Source of the DNA: a virus
Taxonomy: Duplodnaviria > Heunggongvirae > Uroviricota > Caudoviricetes
Reading direction: 5' to 3' (one strand)
DNA: 49,788 bases
IMG/VR virus record: IMGVR_UViG_2718217868_000004
Location: 1-49,788 of that record
Below the pieces are notes generated by a model. The model worked only from the letters and a program-made list of their open reading frames with translations, was not told the origin of the DNA and searched no databases. Position 1 is the stretch's first letter; each line of letters starts with the position of its first letter. Both the position numbers and the translations under genes were made by a program. Of the stretch, positions 1 to 37,761 are shown in pieces.

Positions 1-558
1 TCAGCTAGCTGGAAACTTTTTATACAGAGTTGAGAGCCCTACTCCATACGTTTTTGATACGCTTTGTCGTGATTCACCGGTTGCCATCCGCTCCCCCATT
101 TCCCGCCATTGCTCATCCGTGAACTTAGGCCTGCGACCACCAACTCGCCATTTTGCCCTGGCTACGGCCAGCCCTGCTAAGGTACGTTCGCTATTAAGAT
201 CAGATTCATACTGCGCAGCAGAAAGAATATTACGGAAATTATAGCGACCACTTGCTGTTTTCAGGTCTACGCCATCTGTAATACTCCGAAAATTAACACC
301 TTTTTCGTGCAGATTTTGAAACATCAACAGCGCATGCAGAACGTTGCGGCCTATCCTGTCCAGCTTCCAGACCACCAGTTCATCCCCCTCATTTAATGCC
401 TTGAGAAGCTTTTTTAGTGCTGGCCGGTTTGCTACCGTTCCGCTCATTTTTTCTTCGAAAATTTGTTCACATCCTGCGCGTTCGAGCGCTTGCCGCTGAA
501 GATCCGTATTTTGGTCATTTGTTGACACCCTTACATAGCCAATTTGTATATTTTTCAC
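1..558 (-). CDS. Serine recombinase, DNA invertase of the Hin/Gin/Cin/Pin family
   Basis: 185-aa ORF with N-terminal GYVRVSTNDQ catalytic-serine motif and C-terminal HTH; close resemblance to e14 Pin / Mu Gin as remembered; lies next to an inverted-repeat-flanked tail fiber segment. Confidence 0.9.
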   Translation of the reverse strand: MKNIQIGYVRVSTNDQNTDLQRQALERAGCEQIFEEKMSGTVANRPALKKLLKALNEGDELVVWKLDRIGRNVLHALLMFQNLHEKGVNFRSITDGVDLKTASGRYNFRNILSAAQYESDLNSERTLAGLAVARAKWRVGGRRPKFTDEQWREMGERMATGESRQSVSKTYGVGLSTLYKKFPAS

Positions 559-583
559 CCAGTTATTTCTGCAAAAAAATCAG

Positions 584-1447
584 GTGAAGTTATCGGCCAG
601 GCCGGCCCGTGGCAATCTATTAAACGTCGGTTTGGGAGATACAGTTACACCCAACTTCGGCAGCCTTGAAATCGGAGCCAAAAAGCCCTCTTCAGCCAGC
701 TTCGTTGACTTCCATTTTCTTGGCTCGAATGACTATGACGCGCGCATCCTTTGCGGTGGCAATTCCAATGGAGCTAATGGCAAAGGGGACTTTACATTTT
801 ATGCAGGAAAATACGTGTTTATCGGAGACAGTTTCGAGTTCCGTAATCCAATTAACTGCCAAAACAGCATCAGCGCCGATGGCACACTAAGAGCAACCAC
901 GTCGTCAAACATATGGGCTTCCAGCGATACGCAGAATGCGCACCTGTGGTTTTACGGGGTCGGTGGGAATGCATCGCGCGGGGTAATCTATGCACCTAAG
1001 GACGGTATGATCCTACTCAGACCGGACAGCAACGATAACGGTGGCGCGAATGGCTATAATTTTTCGTTTGAATCATCTGGCCGGTTCACCTGTATTTCGG
1101 TAAACCAGACCTCTGACGAACGAGTTAAGTTTGACAAAGAGCCCGTCAGTAACGCTCTGGAGAAGATTTGTACCCTGACGGGCTACACATTCGGCATTCA
1201 GCTCACCGAATCAGCGACGGTACGAAGCGCAGGCATTATCGCCCAGGAACTGGAGCAGGTTCTGCCGGTTGCTGTGAGTTCTGACGGCACCGGCACAACA
1301 CCTGCTGGAGAAGAAATTACCGCTCTCAAAACCGTGGACTACAGTGCAATGAGTGCCCTGTATGTGGAGGCGATAAAGGAGCTTGCCGAGCGTGTCAGAA
1401 GCTTAGAAAGAGAACTGCGTGAACTTTGCAGCCCATCGGCTACCTAA
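584..1447 (+). CDS. Alternative tail fiber distal module A with C-terminal intramolecular-chaperone (peptidase S74-like) domain; probably the silent copy in this orientation
   Basis: C-terminus SDERVK...AGIIAQELEQVLP...VDYSAMSALYVEAIKEL matches the endosialidase-chaperone domain pattern; reading frame crosses the left crossover site encoding VGLG; converges tail-to-tail with module B. Confidence 0.6.
   Translation: MKLSARPARGNLLNVGLGDTVTPNFGSLEIGAKKPSSASFVDFHFLGSNDYDARILCGGNSNGANGKGDFTFYAGKYVFIGDSFEFRNPINCQNSISADGTLRATTSSNIWASSDTQNAHLWFYGVGGNASRGVIYAPKDGMILLRPDSNDNGGANGYNFSFESSGRFTCISVNQTSDERVKFDKEPVSNALEKICTLTGYTFGIQLTESATVRSAGIIAQELEQVLPVAVSSDGTGTTPAGEEITALKTVDYSAMSALYVEAIKELAERVRSLERELRELCSPSAT
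615..640. repeat. Left crossover site of invertible segment (gix/hix-like, 26 bp, core TC near 627-628)
   Basis: ATCTATTAAACG-TC-GGTTTGGGAGAT is an imperfect palindrome and matches the reverse complement of the site at 2038-2063 in its core (AAAsGTCGGTTTrGGA); 57 bp from the invertase start. Confidence 0.55.
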
Positions 1448-1998
1448 TCCACCACCCGTTTCTCTAGTCCCTTCACACGGATTGTCAGCGCTTTGATTGC
1501 CGCCAGCGCATCGAGCACAAGAGGGTTGAGGTCTAGGGTCATTTTCCCCGACTCCTCAGCCGAGTGAACATATTGCGGATCTATCTTTTCCAGTTCCTGA
1601 GCAACAACACCTCGGCGTATCGTTTTCTCTTCATCAGCAAGGTAGTAGAAGGTCTTAAAATCCATTGCCACGATGTTGGCCAGAGACACTTCTAAATTAA
1701 GTTCTCCAGTAACCTTCTTGAAATTTATGTCCGATGTACCTGCAGACTGCAGCTGCGCCCACGGCGCTGATGATTTTGGTGTTTGAGGGTCAGTGGTTGT
1801 TAGAAAACGGCTGAATACCGCACTACCGTAAGTAATCCACAGCTGCGCAATTCGCTGCCCGGTGTAGGAACTCTGAAACCCACAGCCATTCGTAGGAGCC
1901 CACAGAGTATTGCCATCAGCATCACTGATGAAGGATGAACTGGCATCTGTGGGCTTATTTTGGAGAACAGCACCAACCCCAAAAGCTCCCACCTGCAT
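1444..1998 (-). CDS. Alternative tail fiber distal module B with C-terminal intramolecular-chaperone (S74-like) domain; copy currently facing the constant fiber gene
   Basis: C-terminus RRGVVAQELEKIDPQYV...LVLDALAAIKAL resembles the S74 chaperone domain; ATG at 1998 with AGGGA RBS; frame is open upstream through the right crossover site (IKVGLG). Confidence 0.6.
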   Translation of the reverse strand: MQVGAFGVGAVLQNKPTDASSSFISDADGNTLWAPTNGCGFQSSYTGQRIAQLWITYGSAVFSRFLTTTDPQTPKSSAPWAQLQSAGTSDINFKKVTGELNLEVSLANIVAMDFKTFYYLADEEKTIRRGVVAQELEKIDPQYVHSAEESGKMTLDLNPLVLDALAAIKALTIRVKGLEKRVVD

Positions 1999-2037
1999 AA
2001 CATTCCCTGCCGCAGTTCCGACATCCTTTGTCGCACT

Positions 2038-11989: not shown

Positions 11990-14900
11990 TTACTTTTTCA
12001 CAAAGCGGCCACCAATCGCTCCATCATCTCTGATTGCTCTGACGATGCCTTCTTGGACATACTGCTTCACACGATCAGCCAGCGCGCGAGCAGCCGCGTC
12101 ACCACCACCGCTGGTATTTGCAGTCGCGTTACCTTTGTTATCGACATAAATATCAACGTTGATTTGATGTCCGGAACCACCAGCGCCTTGGGCACGCACA
12201 CCCAACCGCCCTGCTGAATCTTTAGCTAACGGCATAATAGCTTCCGGCCCTGCCTCTCCAAAGACGCCGCCCTTGGCAAACTTAGAGGCCCCCTGGAAGG
12301 AGAAGTATTGCGGGGAATCATAGACACCGTTCACATACTGGTGAAGGCCCGCTGATTCGTAGACACCACCCTTAGCATTCCTGACTGGCCCGACGAAATC
12401 TGGACTGCCGATACCGCCACCTTGAGGATTTGAAGAGCCACTTATCCACCCCATTGCCGCCTGCACCGCATAGGCCACCATGAGGCGGTTCGTCACATCA
12501 AGGATCATCTTGAGCATGGATTTGCCAAACTCTTTAACCGACGCAGTGCCGGTTGTCATGAGTTCGGTTAGCATGTCGGACAATCCTGTCAAAGTGGAGC
12601 TGGCAACGTTCTTAACGGCGTCGTATGTATTGGTAGCAGCGTCGAGATATTCATTCCAGCCACTTACCGCACCTGCTTTCCAGTCGCCCCGTAATTTGTC
12701 CTCTTCGGCATAATATTTCCTGAGAGCCGCCAGTTCTTTTTTATAACCGGCATCGTCAAGCTTACCGCCACCGTTGAGCCAGCCCTGGCGAAGCTGCGCC
12801 TCTTCCATCATGCGCTGCGTTTGCCGACTGCTGAGACCTGCACTATCACGCAATGCATCGGTTTTTTCCGACATCTGCGTGACGTATTTATTCGCCTGCT
12901 GCGCCAGGCCGTTAATCTTCTGCTGCGCCTCTACTTCCTTGTTCTTCTGATCCACCACCTTGGCGGCGTTCAGAATGGCCTCACGGCTCGACAGTAGAGA
13001 TTTCTCCTGGGCGGTCAGCGCGCGTGTTTTGGCAGCCTCATCCAATTCAGCAAAGCGAGATTGCTGTTTGCTGAATTCGGTATATCTGACCTGAGTCTCC
13101 CCAGTCTTGCGCAACGTTTCGAGTGTTTCAGTTAACGTTCTGGCCTGGGCGCGGTAGTTCTCAAGAGTGCGATCGCCAGCATCCAGCGTGGCTTTTGCCT
13201 CTTTGGTCTTTTTGGCTGAGTCTTGTGCAAGCTTCGAGACTGCGTCTCTTGATTCTCGACTTGTTCCTCCATCACCTTTTACGTTAGACCCTCGCGCTTC
13301 AGCCTCATAGTTTGCCTGTGCGTTAGGCGCAGTGACGCGCTTCCAAAGCTCGTTATAGCGTTTTTTGTTCGCCTCAATCTCTTTGTCCGCCTCCGCTCCA
13401 GCCTTTTTCATTGCCTCAACGTCCATGCCGAGGAAATTAGCCAGCGCACCGCCACCCGGGATTTTGTCTGCCCAGCCAGCGATGGTGCTGGTGAACTTGG
13501 CGTCCAGAGAGGTGATATTGAGGAACAAGTCTTTGATCGAGGATTTAACCAGTTCGAAAATATCAATGATCTGGTTTCCCCATGCGCGCACGGTAATACC
13601 TATATCGCCAAAGGTGTCAGAAGCGCTCTTTTTAAGGTTTTCCCACGTTTGACCGATATTATCGGTCGCTTTGTTGGTCTCCTCTGCGCGCTTTGCCATG
13701 ACGCCTGCAAACAGCTCAATAGCTTCGGTAACAGCCGCCTGCTCACCCTTCTGCTTACGTAGCTGGATAATGTGCTTGATCATGGCTTCATCAACGAAAC
13801 CATATTGTTCATTGAGGCTGGCAAGCCCTTTAACCGGATCGCTGACAATCTTTCCGAAGTCGCTTATTGCCGCTTTGGTATCATTTCCGGCCTTACCCAT
13901 GAGGGTGATGGTCGTTGCGACCTGCTTCATCTGGCTTGCGGTATATTTGCCAGTATCATTCAACGTAACCAGCGTATCGACGGTGGAGCTAATCGATGTA
14001 TTCGTCTTGCCAGCCACTTCCTCAGCGGCCTGGTTGAGCTGCTGCATTGAGGAGAAGCCAGCCCCACCCATCATGATGACAGAGCGTGCCACCTGCTCAA
14101 ATTGCTCCGAGGAGTTATACGCTGCGGCAGCCAGCAGGCCGATCGTGCCAATCAGCCCACCAAGTGCGATTGTGGTAGGGTTAATCATCCCAGCCATGCT
14201 GCGGATGTATTCGCCGACGCCGGACAGCGCCCCCTGAACCGAGCCGAACTGGTCTTTAATCTGCCCGCCCTGTTGCAGCAGAATCAGGAACGGCGACTGA
14301 CCGCCAGCCAGCTGCGTGGCGATATCGGTGAATTGCGCCGGAAGCGTGCGCATTGCTGCGCTGTACTGACCAACGGAGATTCCAGCGCGCCGGGCAGCAG
14401 CTTCCTGCCGGGATAGCGCCTCTGGTAGTACGTCAGCGACACCAGAGAGGCGCTCACGCGTCTGGTTAAGGATTGTGTTGAAGTGCTCGAACTGAGCACC
14501 GTTAATGCGCCCAGCTTCGAAATGTGCCACCAGCTGTGCGTGCTGTTCATCCAACGAATTGAACGCGCGGATAGTCGGGTCGATGGATCCAAGAAGGTTC
14601 TTTAACGCTGCGGACTGCTTCTCTGCCGCCTGGGTAGCGGCTAATTCGGCCTGAGCACGCGCCGCGGCTTCTCCGGTGTCGGTCAGCTTGAGGCGGGTGT
14701 CATCCAGGATTTTGTTGTATGCCTGAAAGGTATCGGTATCCAGGAAACCTTTGGCCTGGAATTTCCGCAGCGATTCTTGCTGCTCATCCAGGCGGTTTAA
14801 GGCCTTGGTAACCGGGTCGATATTCTCCAGCAGCCCTTTGAGCGCGTTCTGCTGCTCCTTGAGTCCTTCGCTGCCTTGCTTCGCAGATTCAGCGCCAGCG

Positions 14901-33555: not shown

Positions 33556-33656
33556 GGTACTCTCCGTGGCGCATCAAGTTGTCAGTTGTTCAGGCTGACA
33601 CTGACATTATGTACAGCTGATAATGGAAAATCAAATGTTGCTTTTAGCTGAACTGA

Positions 33657-33911
33657 TTAATATTTGTAGCGGTTTTCCGGGAGAAACGCGTATTCGTATG
33701 TGAAGTTGAATGCCTCGTTTTCAGTGTTAAATCGGCGTTCGGTGATATCACTCCAGCGTCCTCCCCTGAAATACTTCTGAGCAACCCACTTTCCCTCAAA
33801 CGGGAATACGGCATATGCACCGACATACCGATTATCATTATGCGGATCGGGATATGAGTCACCTTCTGCCAGAACGTAAAACTTGATTCCGCTTACAATG
33901 AGGCAGCCCAT
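33657..33911 (-). CDS. Hypothetical protein in low-GC island
   Basis: 84-aa ORF; start/stop abuts the next gene; AT-rich surrounding DNA. Confidence 0.45.
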   Translation of the reverse strand: MGCLIVSGIKFYVLAEGDSYPDPHNDNRYVGAYAVFPFEGKWVAQKYFRGGRWSDITERRFNTENEAFNFTYEYAFLPENRYKY

Positions 33912-34168
33912 TACTTCTTCTCATTCTGCGCAGCCATATCCAGATAACGCGAATCGGATGCTTTCGGCAGCGTCAGGCTCTGCTCGCGGTAGTAACGAAC
34001 GCGCTCCATGAAGTATTCGCGAAGATTCTCTGGCTGCTCGCGGGCCACCTGCTCAGCGATAACTGGCATGTTTAGGCGTTCTTTGTACGCCACACCAGAA
34101 GCAGCAAGGTCAACGTTCACCTTGTCCTGTTCTTCTTTTGATTTTGCTGCGATGTTATGGCTAGACAT
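33911..34168 (-). CDS. Hypothetical protein in low-GC island
   Basis: 85-aa ORF co-oriented and contiguous with its neighbour. Confidence 0.45.
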
Positions 34169-34260
34169 GATGAATCCCCCTCAATGCTTTGAGAAGGATT
34201 ATACAAAGAAAAACCGCCGAAGCGGTTTTGTAGTTTTCAAATATTCATCTCAATATCTGG

Positions 34261-34527
34261 CTAGTTGATATCAAATGCCAGTGGATTTGGGCGAACAGCG
34301 TTTATTTGTCCAATGACCCATTGATGATTGTAGGCGGTTCCTACAGGTAGAAGATACCCGTAAGTACCATCTTTAAGCGTCACATGCATACACAAATGGT
34401 CTCCACCATCTATATCGTAAATTGAGCCTTGAGGAATAAATTCCTCAGTTTTAATCAGTGTTATGCCGTTATTGCGTGGAAATATATAGTGATGCATTTT
34501 ATAGCTCCTTTGTCGATTGGAGCCCAA
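34261..34527 (-). CDS. Hypothetical protein in low-GC island
   Basis: 88-aa ORF directly downstream of the methyltransferase. Confidence 0.45.
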   Translation of the reverse strand: MGSNRQRSYKMHHYIFPRNNGITLIKTEEFIPQGSIYDIDGGDHLCMHVTLKDGTYGYLLPVGTAYNHQWVIGQINAVRPNPLAFDIN

Positions 34528-34596
34528 TTATATCAAGTTTAAATCTACGTCATTGAAGTAGCAGGATTTGTTACGTCCTGCCCTGAAACTCAGACT

Positions 34597-36585
34597 CTAA
34601 GCCGCTATTTGTTTCGATTGGCATAGTTCCGGCAAATTAGCACGCACCAGCGCTTCAGCGAACGGCGGTGGCACCGCGTTACCGCAGCGGGCAACCTGTT
34701 TATCCTTCGCGTACTTCTTGCCCCGGTAGTCCTGGTCGATGATGTACCAGTCCGGGAAGCCCTGCGCCCGGTACAGTTCGCGCGGCTGTAACATGCGCAT
34801 ACCAATATCAACAATGCGATACGTCACGCCATCGATCACCACCAACCCGGTACAATCCTCACCACAGTATTTGCGCAGGAACGCCAGCGTTTGTTGCGCG
34901 CGTTCTTCGTCGTACTCATCTACGGCAAGATGAGTTTCAACGTTCCCTACATGCAGGCCACCAGCCGTGACAGTCGGCATTGGCGCGTCGGTGCGTTGTC
35001 CATCCCGGCAGGTTCCGCGCAATTTAACCAGGTGAGAAGCAACCACAGCATGGTGATCGACGGTGGTCACAGAATGCATCGGCTCATCCATCCCCACTCC
35101 GGCGCCCTGGTAATTCCCGCCGTAATGTTTAATGAGATGTGCAGCGGCAACCGCAAATTTATTACCGCCAGCGGTGACCGTGCCAAGCGGGCTATCAAGT
35201 TTCAGCACACGCGGCTCTTGCCCTGGACGTTCGCCATAACCCATCTGAATCAGCGTTGGCGTCACCAGCTGTGATTTACCGCCACCGCCCGCGGTGATAG
35301 TTGCGCTCGGTTCGTCTGCCCGGTGGCCGATACTGGCACCAAACTGCCGGGCAATAACCGGAGCCACCAGGCAACTGCGCGATTGCTTCAGAATAGTGTG
35401 AGCGGGTTTATTTAGTGGGCGCGGCTTCGCCTGATATTCACTGCCCCCATTGCCAGCCAGGAACGGAGTGATCGCCGCCTCAACCAACCCAAGAGCATGA
35501 CCATTGCCGCCCGGGCGCACCGACGTCCCAGCTGTGACAGTGGGCACAGGTTCGGTAACGGGCTGCCCGGTTGCGCCAGTACGGAACTTTGTCAGGTGTG
35601 GAACGGCTAACGCGTAGCCGTGGGTTTTCGTAATGGTCTGCAGAGGCTCTCTCAGCGCCTGCCCACGGAAACAGTCGTATTTCCCTTTGGTCGTCGTGTG
35701 GTTGCACTTGACGATGAACGGCGACGCGCTCTCGATCACAAACCGCTGGATGCCACGAGCGATGCGTTTGAGCGTATTTTCAGCCAGTGGCTTTTTGCGG
35801 TCGAATATCGACGGTGCCGGAATGGTCCAGTCGATACACTCCGCAGCTGTACGCCATGGCGCCAACTTTCCACTCTGCACAGCTGGAGATTTCGGGTCGC
35901 CGTGGGTCGGGTCCGGCCAGGTCACCGGCATACCATCGCAACGCATTACCATGAAGAAACGCTTCCTGATGGTCGGTGCGCCAAAGTCGCAGGCGCGCAG
36001 CTCACGATGATCAACAGCGTAACCCAGCCCGGCCACCAGTTGCTGCGCCAGTTCGCCGTCGGCAGTAATACCCAGGAACTCGCAGCACTCCGCCAGCGCC
36101 GGATGACCGGCAGGAATACCACCGGATAGCATGCCGCAGAAAGCCTCGAAGGTCTCACCAGTACGCAGGGGATTTGGACGTAACCCACCATCAGCAGATT
36201 CGATAAGCGGCCCCCAGGTGCGGAACTCTTCAACGTTCTCCAGCATCATCACACGGGGACGTACCGCCAGCGCCCAGCGAATGACAATCCACGCCAAACC
36301 ACGAATCTCTTTCTCTACCGGCTTTGAACCTTTAGCCTTTGAGAAGTGACGGCAATCAGGGGAAAACCATGCCAGCCCCACCGGGCGGCCAGCGGTCGCT
36401 ACGATGGGATCGACATCAAACACCGATTCGCAGTAGTGCAGTGTATCCGGGTGGTTCGTAGTGTGCATCGCAACAGCGTTCGGGTCGTGGTTAATCGCAA
36501 TATCCACACTACGACCGATCGCCAGCTCAATGCCCGTGCTCGCCCCGCCGCCGCCGGCAAAGTTATCAACGATGATTTCTCTCAC
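34597..36585 (-). CDS. Orphan DNA cytosine-5 methyltransferase; start at GTG overlapping the upstream stop
   Basis: Motif I FAGGGG, PC-type catalytic motif (SPDC) and ENV motif (LENV); GGAGAAA RBS before a GTG that overlaps the upstream TGA; no restriction endonuclease gene nearby. Confidence 0.8.
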   Translation of the reverse strand: MREIIVDNFAGGGGASTGIELAIGRSVDIAINHDPNAVAMHTTNHPDTLHYCESVFDVDPIVATAGRPVGLAWFSPDCRHFSKAKGSKPVEKEIRGLAWIVIRWALAVRPRVMMLENVEEFRTWGPLIESADGGLRPNPLRTGETFEAFCGMLSGGIPAGHPALAECCEFLGITADGELAQQLVAGLGYAVDHRELRACDFGAPTIRKRFFMVMRCDGMPVTWPDPTHGDPKSPAVQSGKLAPWRTAAECIDWTIPAPSIFDRKKPLAENTLKRIARGIQRFVIESASPFIVKCNHTTTKGKYDCFRGQALREPLQTITKTHGYALAVPHLTKFRTGATGQPVTEPVPTVTAGTSVRPGGNGHALGLVEAAITPFLAGNGGSEYQAKPRPLNKPAHTILKQSRSCLVAPVIARQFGASIGHRADEPSATITAGGGGKSQLVTPTLIQMGYGERPGQEPRVLKLDSPLGTVTAGGNKFAVAAAHLIKHYGGNYQGAGVGMDEPMHSVTTVDHHAVVASHLVKLRGTCRDGQRTDAPMPTVTAGGLHVGNVETHLAVDEYDEERAQQTLAFLRKYCGEDCTGLVVIDGVTYRIVDIGMRMLQPRELYRAQGFPDWYIIDQDYRGKKYAKDKQVARCGNAVPPPFAEALVRANLPELCQSKQIAA

Positions 36586-36839
36586 GCGTATTTCTCCATA
36601 GCGGTGGCCAGTGACTGGGCGGCGTTTACGATGGCTGGTACCGGCATTTTCTCCAGCCACATACGGTTGATGTGATGCTTCAGGCGGCGCTGGTGATGCG
36701 CCGGGAGATCCCCGGCACTTTCAATCTGGCTATATACCATTCCCACCTCAGCAGGCCAGACGGTTTCGGTCACATCCACCAGCAGCAGGTTTTCCAGTTC
36801 GACGATGCGTTTCGTGGCGTATTCCAGTTGAGGTTCCAT
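36582..36839 (-). CDS. Hypothetical protein translationally coupled to the methyltransferase
   Basis: 85-aa ORF whose stop TGA overlaps the methyltransferase GTG start. Confidence 0.45.
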   Translation of the reverse strand: MEPQLEYATKRIVELENLLLVDVTETVWPAEVGMVYSQIESAGDLPAHHQRRLKHHINRMWLEKMPVPAIVNAAQSLATAMEKYA

Positions 36840-37168: not shown

Positions 37169-37387
37169 TTAGTCCTCCCTGTACGGATTTAATTTGTTGT
37201 GCAGTTTGTTAAATGGCCCCCATACGATGGAGCTATACCACTCAGCTATCTTTTCTGCCTGTTCTCCTGCTAACCAGATGAGGACTATCGGTGATATTGG
37301 AATCATTAAAATAAGAAAGAGAAGGAAAAATAGAGCCTCTTTAACACGGCTTTGGCGCGGATAATTCTTCAGGAATATTTTGGTCAC
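37169..37387 (-). CDS. Small membrane protein
   Basis: 72 aa with a central hydrophobic helix (FFLLFLILMIPISPIVLIWLA). Confidence 0.4.
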   Translation of the reverse strand: MTKIFLKNYPRQSRVKEALFFLLFLILMIPISPIVLIWLAGEQAEKIAEWYSSIVWGPFNKLHNKLNPYRED

Positions 37388-37761
37388 AAGTTATCCCCCT
37401 CTTGATACCGCTCGAACCAGAACACAACTGGTGCGTTAGTCTGTTTAACCAGGCCAAATGATTCCGCTGTGCGGTAACTTCTTGACGCACGGCGAGTTAC
37501 ATCAACCTGAGTGGCTATGCGGCTGCGAAAGTCTTCTACTGTGCTGCACATTTTGAACAAGTTGCATGGAATGCATGCTGGAACCATGTTGCTGACCGTG
37601 TCATTTTCTGGCCTGTCCATTGCGTAGCCGTTGCTGATATTTCTTCGTACCGCTTCTACATGGTCTGCATGCCACTTATCGCCAAGTTCACAGCCGCAAT
37701 AAGCACAGCGACCGCCAAACTTCATGCGCAGTTCTGCACGCTGTTTTTTCGTCAGTGCCAT
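37384..37761 (-). CDS. HNH endonuclease
   Basis: CAYCGC...HADHV...N...PACIPCN zinc-binding HNH motif. Confidence 0.7.
   Translation of the reverse strand: MALTKKQRAELRMKFGGRCAYCGCELGDKWHADHVEAVRRNISNGYAMDRPENDTVSNMVPACIPCNLFKMCSTVEDFRSRIATQVDVTRRASRSYRTAESFGLVKQTNAPVVFWFERYQEGDNL

Follow-up and report, generated by a model that had tools for sequence, protein, structure and literature searches.

The 49,788-nucleotide viral record IMGVR_UViG_2718217868_000004 (the window, to which coordinates refer unless another locus is named) contains, at positions 33,556 to 36,839, a gene for an orphan C5 cytosine DNA methyltransferase (the methylase), which is preceded by an open reading frame (ORF) of 85 residues and followed by three small genes. 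E. coli strains H6 and H5 carry in their chromosome a lambda-like prophage with 100% identity to the window. The prophage spans the whole window and comprises integrase, RecE/RecT, the repressor region, O and P, a nin-like region, Q, and the lysis, head and tail genes. The locus is part of the early-right (replication-to-Q) region. On the minus strand, the order from P towards Q is an Ead/Ea22-like gene, an HNH gene, a DUF4014 gene, a 108-residue ORF, the 85-residue ORF and the methylase, after which come the three small genes, DUF1367 in the NinB position, YbcO, RusA, YlcG and Q. The complete 3.3-kb stretch is present in two of 5426 complete E. coli genomes, and portions of it in 45. The features of the methylase and of the ORF upstream of it are:

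34597..36585, minus strand: orphan C5 cytosine DNA methyltransferase, 662 residues, GTG start (PF00145, PGAP call, AlphaFold and Foldseek)
35719..36585, minus strand: methylase residues 1-289, catalytic core with motifs I, IV (SPDCRHFS), VI (ENV) and VIII (PTIRKR)
34921..35718, minus strand: methylase residues 290-555, seven tandem units, candidate target-recognition modules (unit alignment, unit hidden Markov model, whole-unit insertions and deletions)
34597..34920, minus strand: methylase residues 556-662, a degenerate last unit followed by motifs IX (RMLQPRELYRAQGFPD) and X (GNAVPP)
36582..36839, minus strand: 85-residue ORF (YfdM-like), a C-terminal module detached from a Dam-type (PF05869) adenine methylase; the TGA of the ORF overlaps the methylase GTG

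The methylase matches PF00145 (E=7e-21) at its N- and C-terminal parts only. Motifs I, IV, VI, VIII, IX and X of C5 methyltransferases are all found in the canonical order, and their key residues are invariant in 50 homologues: F9, G11, G13 and G14 in motif I, P76 and C78 in motif IV, E116, N117 and V118 in motif VI, R207 and R209 in motif VIII, R597 and E603 in motif IX, and G635, N636 and V638 in motif X. Motif IV (residues 72-79; 36348-36371, minus strand) reads S-P-D-C-R-H-F-S, with P-D-C where P-C-Q is usual, and at least 90% of the 50 family members in the alignment retain D77. The core was modelled by AlphaFold with a predicted local distance difference test (pLDDT) score above 90, residues 1-289 ranging from about 76 to 98 except for the loop 84-89, and the best Foldseek matches are the prophage CP-933R methylase 3G7U and the catalytic domains of DNMT1 and MET1. 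The ratio of non-synonymous to synonymous substitution rates (dN/dS) is 0.10 against a 74% identical phage copy. The Pfam match and the invariant residues bear out the initial annotation of this DNA, which had described a 662-residue C5 methylase with motifs I, IV-like and VI. As judged from its sequence, the protein is probably a solitary, active C5 cytosine enzyme.

The methylase ORF is open from position 36660. The GTG at 36585 is the better start because it is used by PGAP, homologues begin there with MREIIVDNF, GGAG lies 8 nucleotides upstream, and it overlaps the stop codon of the 85-residue ORF. RefSeq PGAP places the identical start in the identical gene of E. coli H6. In the start context (...ATGGAGAAATACGCGTGAGAGAA) the GTG shares TG with the TGA of the 85-residue ORF, forming GTGA. 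Klebsiella phage 5 LV-2017 likewise has GTGA at this junction, the overlap reads ATGCGTGA in Citrobacter phage phiNP, and a 4-nucleotide overlap of the two genes is found in five E. coli and Salmonella prophage contexts. The overlapping GTG start proposed previously is thus retained, and since the overlap is conserved, translational coupling of the 85-residue ORF and the methylase is plausible.

The central part of the methylase is built of seven head-to-tail units of 33-42 residues, with the consensus hLxKxxGxxxGQ..(D/E)PxxT[VI]TAGG..AhVxA. The repeats are detectable only by motif-anchored alignment combined with a hidden Markov model (HMM); a BLASTP self-comparison of the central region did not find internal repeats. 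An HMM made from the query units was run on 150 independent cluster representatives, where it identified 4.5 units per protein on average; their shuffled copies gave none. A broader unit HMM, applied to 150 distant representatives, identified one to twelve units per protein (mode 7, 933 units in total). Among the 120 closest homologues, which are 81-94% identical, the length classes of 627, about 660 and about 694 residues correspond to six, seven and eight units, and insertions or deletions of whole units separate homologues that are 86-94% identical. The common E. coli form of 627 residues lacks unit 3, and the 694-residue forms have an additional 32-residue unit between units 6 and 7. In their DNA the units have no more than about 19 nucleotides in common, at the PTVTAG codons, which shows that they are old; recent duplication or slippage was rejected on the same grounds.

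Two explanations of the array were considered. The methylase may carry a combinatorial array of autonomous target-recognition modules of about 35 residues, each adding one short target to the shared catalytic core. Alternatively, it may have one low-stringency specificity, for example for a short CC context, with the units forming a single extended beta-rich DNA-binding scaffold. The gain or loss of exactly one unit between near-identical proteins speaks against a single scaffold. The units were also sorted into types. Single-linkage clustering merged nearly all units, and Louvain communities were used, which gave about ten recurrent types that are recognisable across phyla but are approximate, types 0 and 1 being broad. 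The 150 representatives contain 141 distinct unit arrangements, in which the middle units vary in presence and order, again at odds with a scaffold. The ends of the array are more uniform, in keeping with a structural array: type 1 or 5 usually comes first, and in 125 of the 150 proteins type 2 comes last, usually after type 0. Well-defined types are duplicated within one protein 28 times, compared with 63.8±4.9 times (minimum 49) in 1000 label shuffles, and this depletion argues for non-redundant modules. For the broad types 0 and 1, however, more than one copy per protein is frequent, which would suit a scaffold.

The type that ends the array in these 125 proteins has the form FLxKYYG...HTVTtKDRfGLV. 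Here, and in all close enterobacterial homologues, it is reduced to AFLRKYCGEDC..TGLVVI (residues 556-590), with the PxxT motif deleted.

Tested relatives of the methylase provide evidence that bears on both explanations. The methylase is 42.8% identical to Pyei1_p05 of a Paracoccus phage over residues 4-650 (E=7e-171), and 38% identical to the homologue from Rhizobium phage RR1-A over 100% of the query; these two proteins have eight and nine units, respectively, with some types in common with the E. coli methylase. Pyei1_p05 is in turn about 69% identical to JCM7686_0772 and JCM7686_2655 (PMC6536676), two prophage enzymes of Paracoccus aminophilus that Dziewit et al. expressed in E. coli and described as having "relaxed substrate specificity" (PMC3925955). 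They gave plasmid DNA partial protection against 16 of 28 restriction enzymes, including AluI (AGCT), BsuRI (GGCC), HpaII/MspI (CCGG), EcoRII (CCWGG), Hin6I (GCGC), TaiI (ACGT) and PvuII, whereas the sites CGCG, GATC, CATG, CCATGG and CCWWGG were not protected (PMC3925955). The homologues from Aeromonas ARM81 phages are likewise relaxed in specificity (PMC6536676, PMC5537653). RR1-A was named as a homologue in a study that found phage proteins of about 700 residues to be widespread, also in Gammaproteobacteria (PMC5537653). Considering the identity to Pyei1_p05, the methylase is not a new kind of enzyme; it is predicted to be a new enterobacterial member of a family of 5-methylcytosine (m5C) phage methylases of about 500-800 residues, the tested members of which have relaxed specificity. 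The family is very large, with more than 8000 close matches and 2576 representatives of 50%-identity clusters at E<1e-30, whose lengths range from about 470 to more than 1100 residues. It occurs in 122 phage records, and the hosts extend to cyanobacteria, Bacteroidota, Firmicutes and a haloarchaeon; the phages include Pseudomonas F116, Pectobacterium ZF40, Rhodobacter RcapNL, Rhizobium RR1-A and Paracoccus Pyei1, as well as phages of Vibrio, Aeromonas, Burkholderia, Nostoc, Roseburia and Halobacterium. We found no published description of this family as multispecific in the literature, and none of its modular centre.

The reports on the Paracoccus and Sinorhizobium enzymes, according to which the C in a CC motif is modified and protection is only partial, are in line with one relaxed specificity carried by a scaffold. 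However, the protected sites AGCT, GCGC and ACGT contain no CC, and CCATGG and CCWWGG, which do, were not protected. A stable repeat fold is also usually modelled with confidence, and AlphaFold did not do so for units 1-6. We consider a single specificity on an extended scaffold unlikely. Autonomous modules are favoured by the architecture, the unit-wise variation, the non-redundant types, and the discrete and unrelated sites protected by the Paracoccus enzymes.

The multispecific methylases of Bacillus phages contain several target-recognising domains in tandem, and both a 2022 research paper and a 2025 review cite only Bacillus phages for such an arrangement. A likeness of the units to the two Gly-rich recognition loops of M.HhaI, seen by eye, was dropped as unsupported by the HMM. 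When an ordinary C5 methylase (PMC11954522) was examined, the unit core aligned to DKPSPTITTQ, 22 residues before motif IX (E=0.0015, for a single sequence), from which it follows that each unit repeats a motif found once in the variable region of ordinary enzymes. In the absence of significant similarity to known target-recognition domains, the assignment of the units as such domains draws on the architecture and the short motif.

Several observations weigh against the units being target-recognition modules, or against the wider proposal for the locus. The unit HMM scored below zero on SPR, rho11s, H2 and phi3T, where only the short (E)PxxT[VIL] motif lines up, and it did not match M.HhaI; a search of all Protein Data Bank (PDB) sequences with the unit profile gave only chance matches to herpesvirus UL34. 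This lack of detectable homology to proven target-recognition domains also fits a scaffold. AlphaFold modelled units 1-6 with pLDDT below 50, and thus without a confident model, and unit 7 with 62-77. The frequent duplication of types 0 and 1, and the degeneration of a near-universal last unit type in the enterobacterial clade, belong here as well. Among the relatives, a Sinorhizobium homologue was inactive in E. coli (PMC5537653), and the authors of the Paracoccus study interpreted the partial protection as relaxed specificity around a CC motif and not as several discrete specificities. No methylation data for this methylase or its enterobacterial relatives were found in the literature. The promoter calls at the small genes, described below, were made by eye. 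Taking both sides together, we hold the combinatorial array of autonomous modules tentatively, at somewhat below an even chance; that one unit would correspond to one target may come close to, or just reach, an even chance.

The relatives also bear on the role of the methylase. The initial annotation held that orphan phage methylases usually protect against host restriction, and this view is strengthened by the experiments in which enzymes of the same family block many m5C-sensitive restriction enzymes. Taken together, the identity of the parts of the locus and the anti-restriction role of the methylase are likely, and we propose them with good confidence. Decewicz et al. speculated about a role in replication from the location of such genes beside replication modules (PMC5537653), and the main task of the methylase could instead be epigenetic control of the lysogen or of phage replication; there are known prophage methylases that change host transcription. 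However, the gene lies between P and Q and the promoter scan reported no promoter-like site upstream of it, so that it would be repressed in the lysogen, and methylation at many sites is ill suited to specific regulation. A mainly regulatory role is accordingly quite improbable.

It could also be argued that the methylase is a decaying or silent gene without current function. The last unit lacks its PxxT motif, the tape-measure gene of the prophage is disrupted, the full locus occurs in only two of the 5426 genomes, other prophages retain only 3' remnants of the methylase, and a homologue is inactive in E. coli. Against this, every catalytic motif residue is intact, dN/dS is 0.10 as given above, and the degenerate last unit is common to the whole enterobacterial clade, which has many full-length members. 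We regard decay as very improbable.

The initial annotation had noted the absence of a neighbouring restriction endonuclease, and the annotation of the entire prophage agrees, as it includes none. The direct neighbours of the methylase are the 85-residue Dam-tail ORF and a 78-residue ORF, in place of the cognate endonuclease that adjoins the methylase in type II restriction-modification systems. The nearest gene of a related kind is a generic HNH gene three genes upstream, in a gene chain with overlaps or gaps of a few nucleotides that runs down to the methylase:

37384-37761, minus strand: HNH endonuclease gene, 125 residues, with weak PtuB-like HNH matches only; overlaps the DUF4014 gene by 4 nucleotides
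37169-37387, minus strand: DUF4014 gene; overlaps the HNH gene by 4 nucleotides

Both were missing from the gene calls upstream of the methylase in the five other prophage contexts that were compared. The HNH gene was rejected as a restriction partner, being generic and absent from other methylase contexts.

Like the modular centre, the origin of the upstream ORF in a methylase is an addition to the initial annotation. The 85-residue ORF matches phrog_16025 over its full length (E=5e-50), a family labelled "DNA methyltransferase", and is 35-36% identical to the last ~85 residues of the phiNP Mtase (293 residues) and of Sb44 of ST64B (297 residues). The first ~200 residues of these two proteins form the PF05869 Dam domain, and the ORF aligns beyond it, to residues ~210-297. 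PADLOC likewise reports MTase_II (PDLC03332) at positions 231-294 of 297. The ORF itself has no Pfam match even at E up to 5 and does not contain the PF05869 catalytic domain. It is preceded by a strong AAGGAGGA ribosome-binding site and a TGATG overlap with the preceding gene, and its dN/dS is 0.19 against Klebsiella phage 5. In phiNP a complete Dam gene occupies the same position directly upstream as our ORF and overlaps the C5 methylase start. Our prophage, Klebsiella phage 5 and many prophages of E. coli and Salmonella keep the tail alone, as a free gene. The 10.3-kDa protein P76509 we take to be yfdM. From YfdM and the C-terminal extension of phage Dam-family proteins the ORF differs in being free-standing, with 85 residues, its own ribosome-binding site and no catalytic domain. 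In the ST64B record, Sb44 is described as similar to b2356 of E. coli K-12 and to P76509. That the 85-residue protein is a partner of the C5 methylase is a guess.

Proteins named "phosphoadenosine phosphosulfate reductase" in RefSeq, namely ST64B Sb44 and its relatives, are PF05869 Dam-family proteins with a C-terminal extension of ~90 residues. The name is apparently a mistaken annotation that has been propagated:

L007 2627-5228 (phiNP locus) and L005 2302-3195 (ST64B locus): Dam-family proteins mislabelled as phosphoadenosine phosphosulfate (PAPS) reductase

True PAPS-reductase-like genes (PF01507) adjoin the C5 methylase in Rhizobium phage RR1-A (locus L008, 3552-6853). In a Salmonella prophage (locus L014, 831-2703), a PAPS-reductase-like gene lies beside a dATP/dGTP pyrophosphohydrolase gene, just upstream of a hot cassette. 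These neighbours may be part of a larger gene neighbourhood for DNA modification or nucleotide metabolism.

Downstream of the methylase the locus contains:

34527..34535, minus strand: TGATATAAT, which by eye is a perfect extended -10 element, upstream of small gene 1
34261..34497, minus strand: small gene 1, 78 residues, AT-rich, with a moron-like layout (phrog_30079, full length)
34210..34229, minus strand: hairpin AAAACCGCTTCGGCGGTTTT and a T-run after it, resembling an intrinsic terminator, between small gene 1 and hot
33911..34168, minus strand: hot, DNA polymerase III theta subunit homologue, 85 residues (PF06440, NF008207, identity to P1 Hot)
33657..33911, minus strand: small gene 3, 84 residues, its start overlapping the hot stop (TAATG)

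The initial annotation described these genes as an AT-rich island of three small genes of unknown function, acquired as one module. The GC content of the stretch is indeed lower, averaging about 44% compared with 53.1% for the window and 58.4% for the methylase, but the island is not uniform: small gene 1 has 40.1% (34% at third codon positions), hot 51.2%, small gene 3 46.3%, and the intergenic pieces 38-43%. The genes are real, since all three match PHROG families over their full length and dN/dS is 0.04-0.09 for hot and small gene 3. The function of the middle gene is known, so that the possibility, raised in the same annotation, of nin-region genes with known functions applies in part. The gene encodes a homologue of phage P1 Hot and of DNA polymerase III theta, with matches to PF06440 (E=5e-35; 119.5 bits against a cut-off of 34.6), NF008207 (106.1 against 97) and PDB entries 1SE7/2IDO (E=2e-34), and its product is 80% identical to P1 Hot over 75 residues. 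The P1 protein can take the place of theta and stabilise epsilon, and its expression has been reported for both lysogeny and lytic growth (PMC2528190, PMC7556043). Our hot differs from that of P1 in its location in the nin-like region of a lambda-like prophage and in being paired with a conserved 84-residue gene.

This gene, small gene 3, is the conserved partner of hot and is unannotated in RefSeq H6. A tblastn search of phage genomes found no homologue of it in any record, including P1 and other hot-carrying phages. Its fold weakly resembles DHHA1 domains, and its constant pairing with hot suggests a replication-related role. In other prophages the slot of hot is occupied by a dinI-type gene and an ORF of ~80 residues.

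Small gene 1 is preceded by an AAAGGAG ribosome-binding site. A consensus promoter scanner did not report a promoter at TGATATAAT; the annotators of phage mEp237 mark one at the equivalent place. Its relatives are limited to three homologue clusters and mEp237_047, which is 42% identical and in the same position. In other prophages it lies ~100 nucleotides downstream of the methylase, and it stays with the 3' end of the methylase even where only a remnant is left, as in E. coli MSB1_9D and phage mEp237. Because the 78-residue gene travels with the methylase, and hot with the 84-residue gene forms a separate cassette, the idea of one acquired module does not hold. There are two cargo modules, the 78-residue gene and the hot cassette, the latter alternating with the dinI-type cassette in the same slot.

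The earlier proposal, which sees the small genes as possible anti-defence or toxin-antitoxin cargo of the methylase, is favoured by the moron-like layout of small gene 1, which is AT-rich and has its own -10 element and terminator, by the lack of a known function for small genes 1 and 3, and by the alternative cassettes that fill the slot in different phages, as is often the case at anti-defence loci. It is not supported by the matches: the middle gene is Hot, and small genes 1 and 3 match nothing in Pfam, NCBIfam or PADLOC, libraries that cover anti-defence proteins poorly. In addition, the alternative cassette encodes DinI, another modulator of DNA metabolism and no toxin, and small gene 3, of which the resemblance to DHHA1 is weak, always accompanies hot, as would a gene related to replication. 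Such cargo is improbable here.

Two observations concern other parts of the prophage. Within window positions 1-2000, a small serine-type "recombinase family protein" gene lies beside two oppositely oriented genes with tail-fibre domains, an arrangement that looks like a Gin/Cin/Pin-type invertible tail-fibre switch:

25-573 plus strand, 608-1471 plus strand and 1468-2022 minus strand (coordinates of locus L018): recombinase and tail-fibre-domain genes

The tape-measure gene, at window positions ~11990-14420, is annotated as one shortened coding sequence and an adjoining internal pseudogene fragment. The split may mean that the prophage is defective or that a repeat collapsed in the assembly.

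Based on the gene content of the locus and the properties of tested relatives, a mechanism can be proposed. Presumably during lytic growth, the methylase would methylate replicating phage DNA, and the methylated progeny would be protected, in the next host, from many m5C-sensitive restriction enzymes. The broad specificity would come from the seven ~35-residue units between motifs VIII and IX, which carry the Gly-rich and PxxT[VI]T motifs and would serve as alternative target-recognition modules on one core, a design as in the multispecific methylases of Bacillus phages. The methylase would be translated in tandem with the 85-residue protein, whose origin is the C-terminal module of a Dam-type enzyme. 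Of the two independent cargo modules downstream, the 78-residue gene has its own extended -10 element and terminator, and Hot, from the cassette with the 84-residue gene, probably acts like P1 Hot, binding and stabilising epsilon, the proofreading subunit of the host.

Broad-spectrum self-methylation is one main route by which temperate phages escape restriction, and it also bears on cloning, on the host range in phage therapy and on the reading of m5C signals in bacterial methylomes. The methylase family is little studied for its size, only a few alphaproteobacterial and Aeromonas members having been tested. If the units are individual recognition modules, specificity would be predictable from sequence and engineerable, and the order of modules would allow the methylation spectrum to be deduced and reprogrammed. 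The natural six-, seven- and eight-unit alleles of Enterobacteriaceae, near-identical and one unit apart, are ready-made test cases. The unit-by-unit modular centre is the one feature of the locus that deserves experiment; the rest is ordinary lambdoid mosaic cargo, consisting of Hot, its unannotated partner gene and a moron.

The closest known systems are the m5C methylases of Alphaproteobacteria and Aeromonas (JCM7686_0772, JCM7686_2655, Pyei1_p05, RR1-A gp60 and ARM81), which share with our methylase full-length homology, size class, orphan status, a location near the phage replication module and a centre of tandem units. Our methylase differs from them in its residence in a lambda-like prophage of Enterobacteriaceae, in the complement and order of its units, of which only some types are shared (for example, the TLIQxGYGERxGQ type), in its degenerate last unit, and in its putative coupling to the Dam-derived 85-residue ORF. 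The methylases of the Bacillus phages SPR, phi3T, rho11s, H2 and SPbeta resemble it in design: one core with short tandem modules between motifs VIII and IX, a T[LIV][TSN][TA]-type motif in each module, and modules gained or lost between relatives. They, too, are orphan phage enzymes that protect against several restriction systems. In contrast to the Bacillus enzymes, our methylase has shorter (~35 residues) and more numerous units, up to twelve in the family, without significant similarity to the Bacillus target-recognition domains, and its core is of a different subfamily, with P-D-C in motif IV and PTIRKR as motif VIII. If its units are recognition modules as well, the family would be a pan-bacterial, non-homologous counterpart of the Bacillus phage multispecific methylases.

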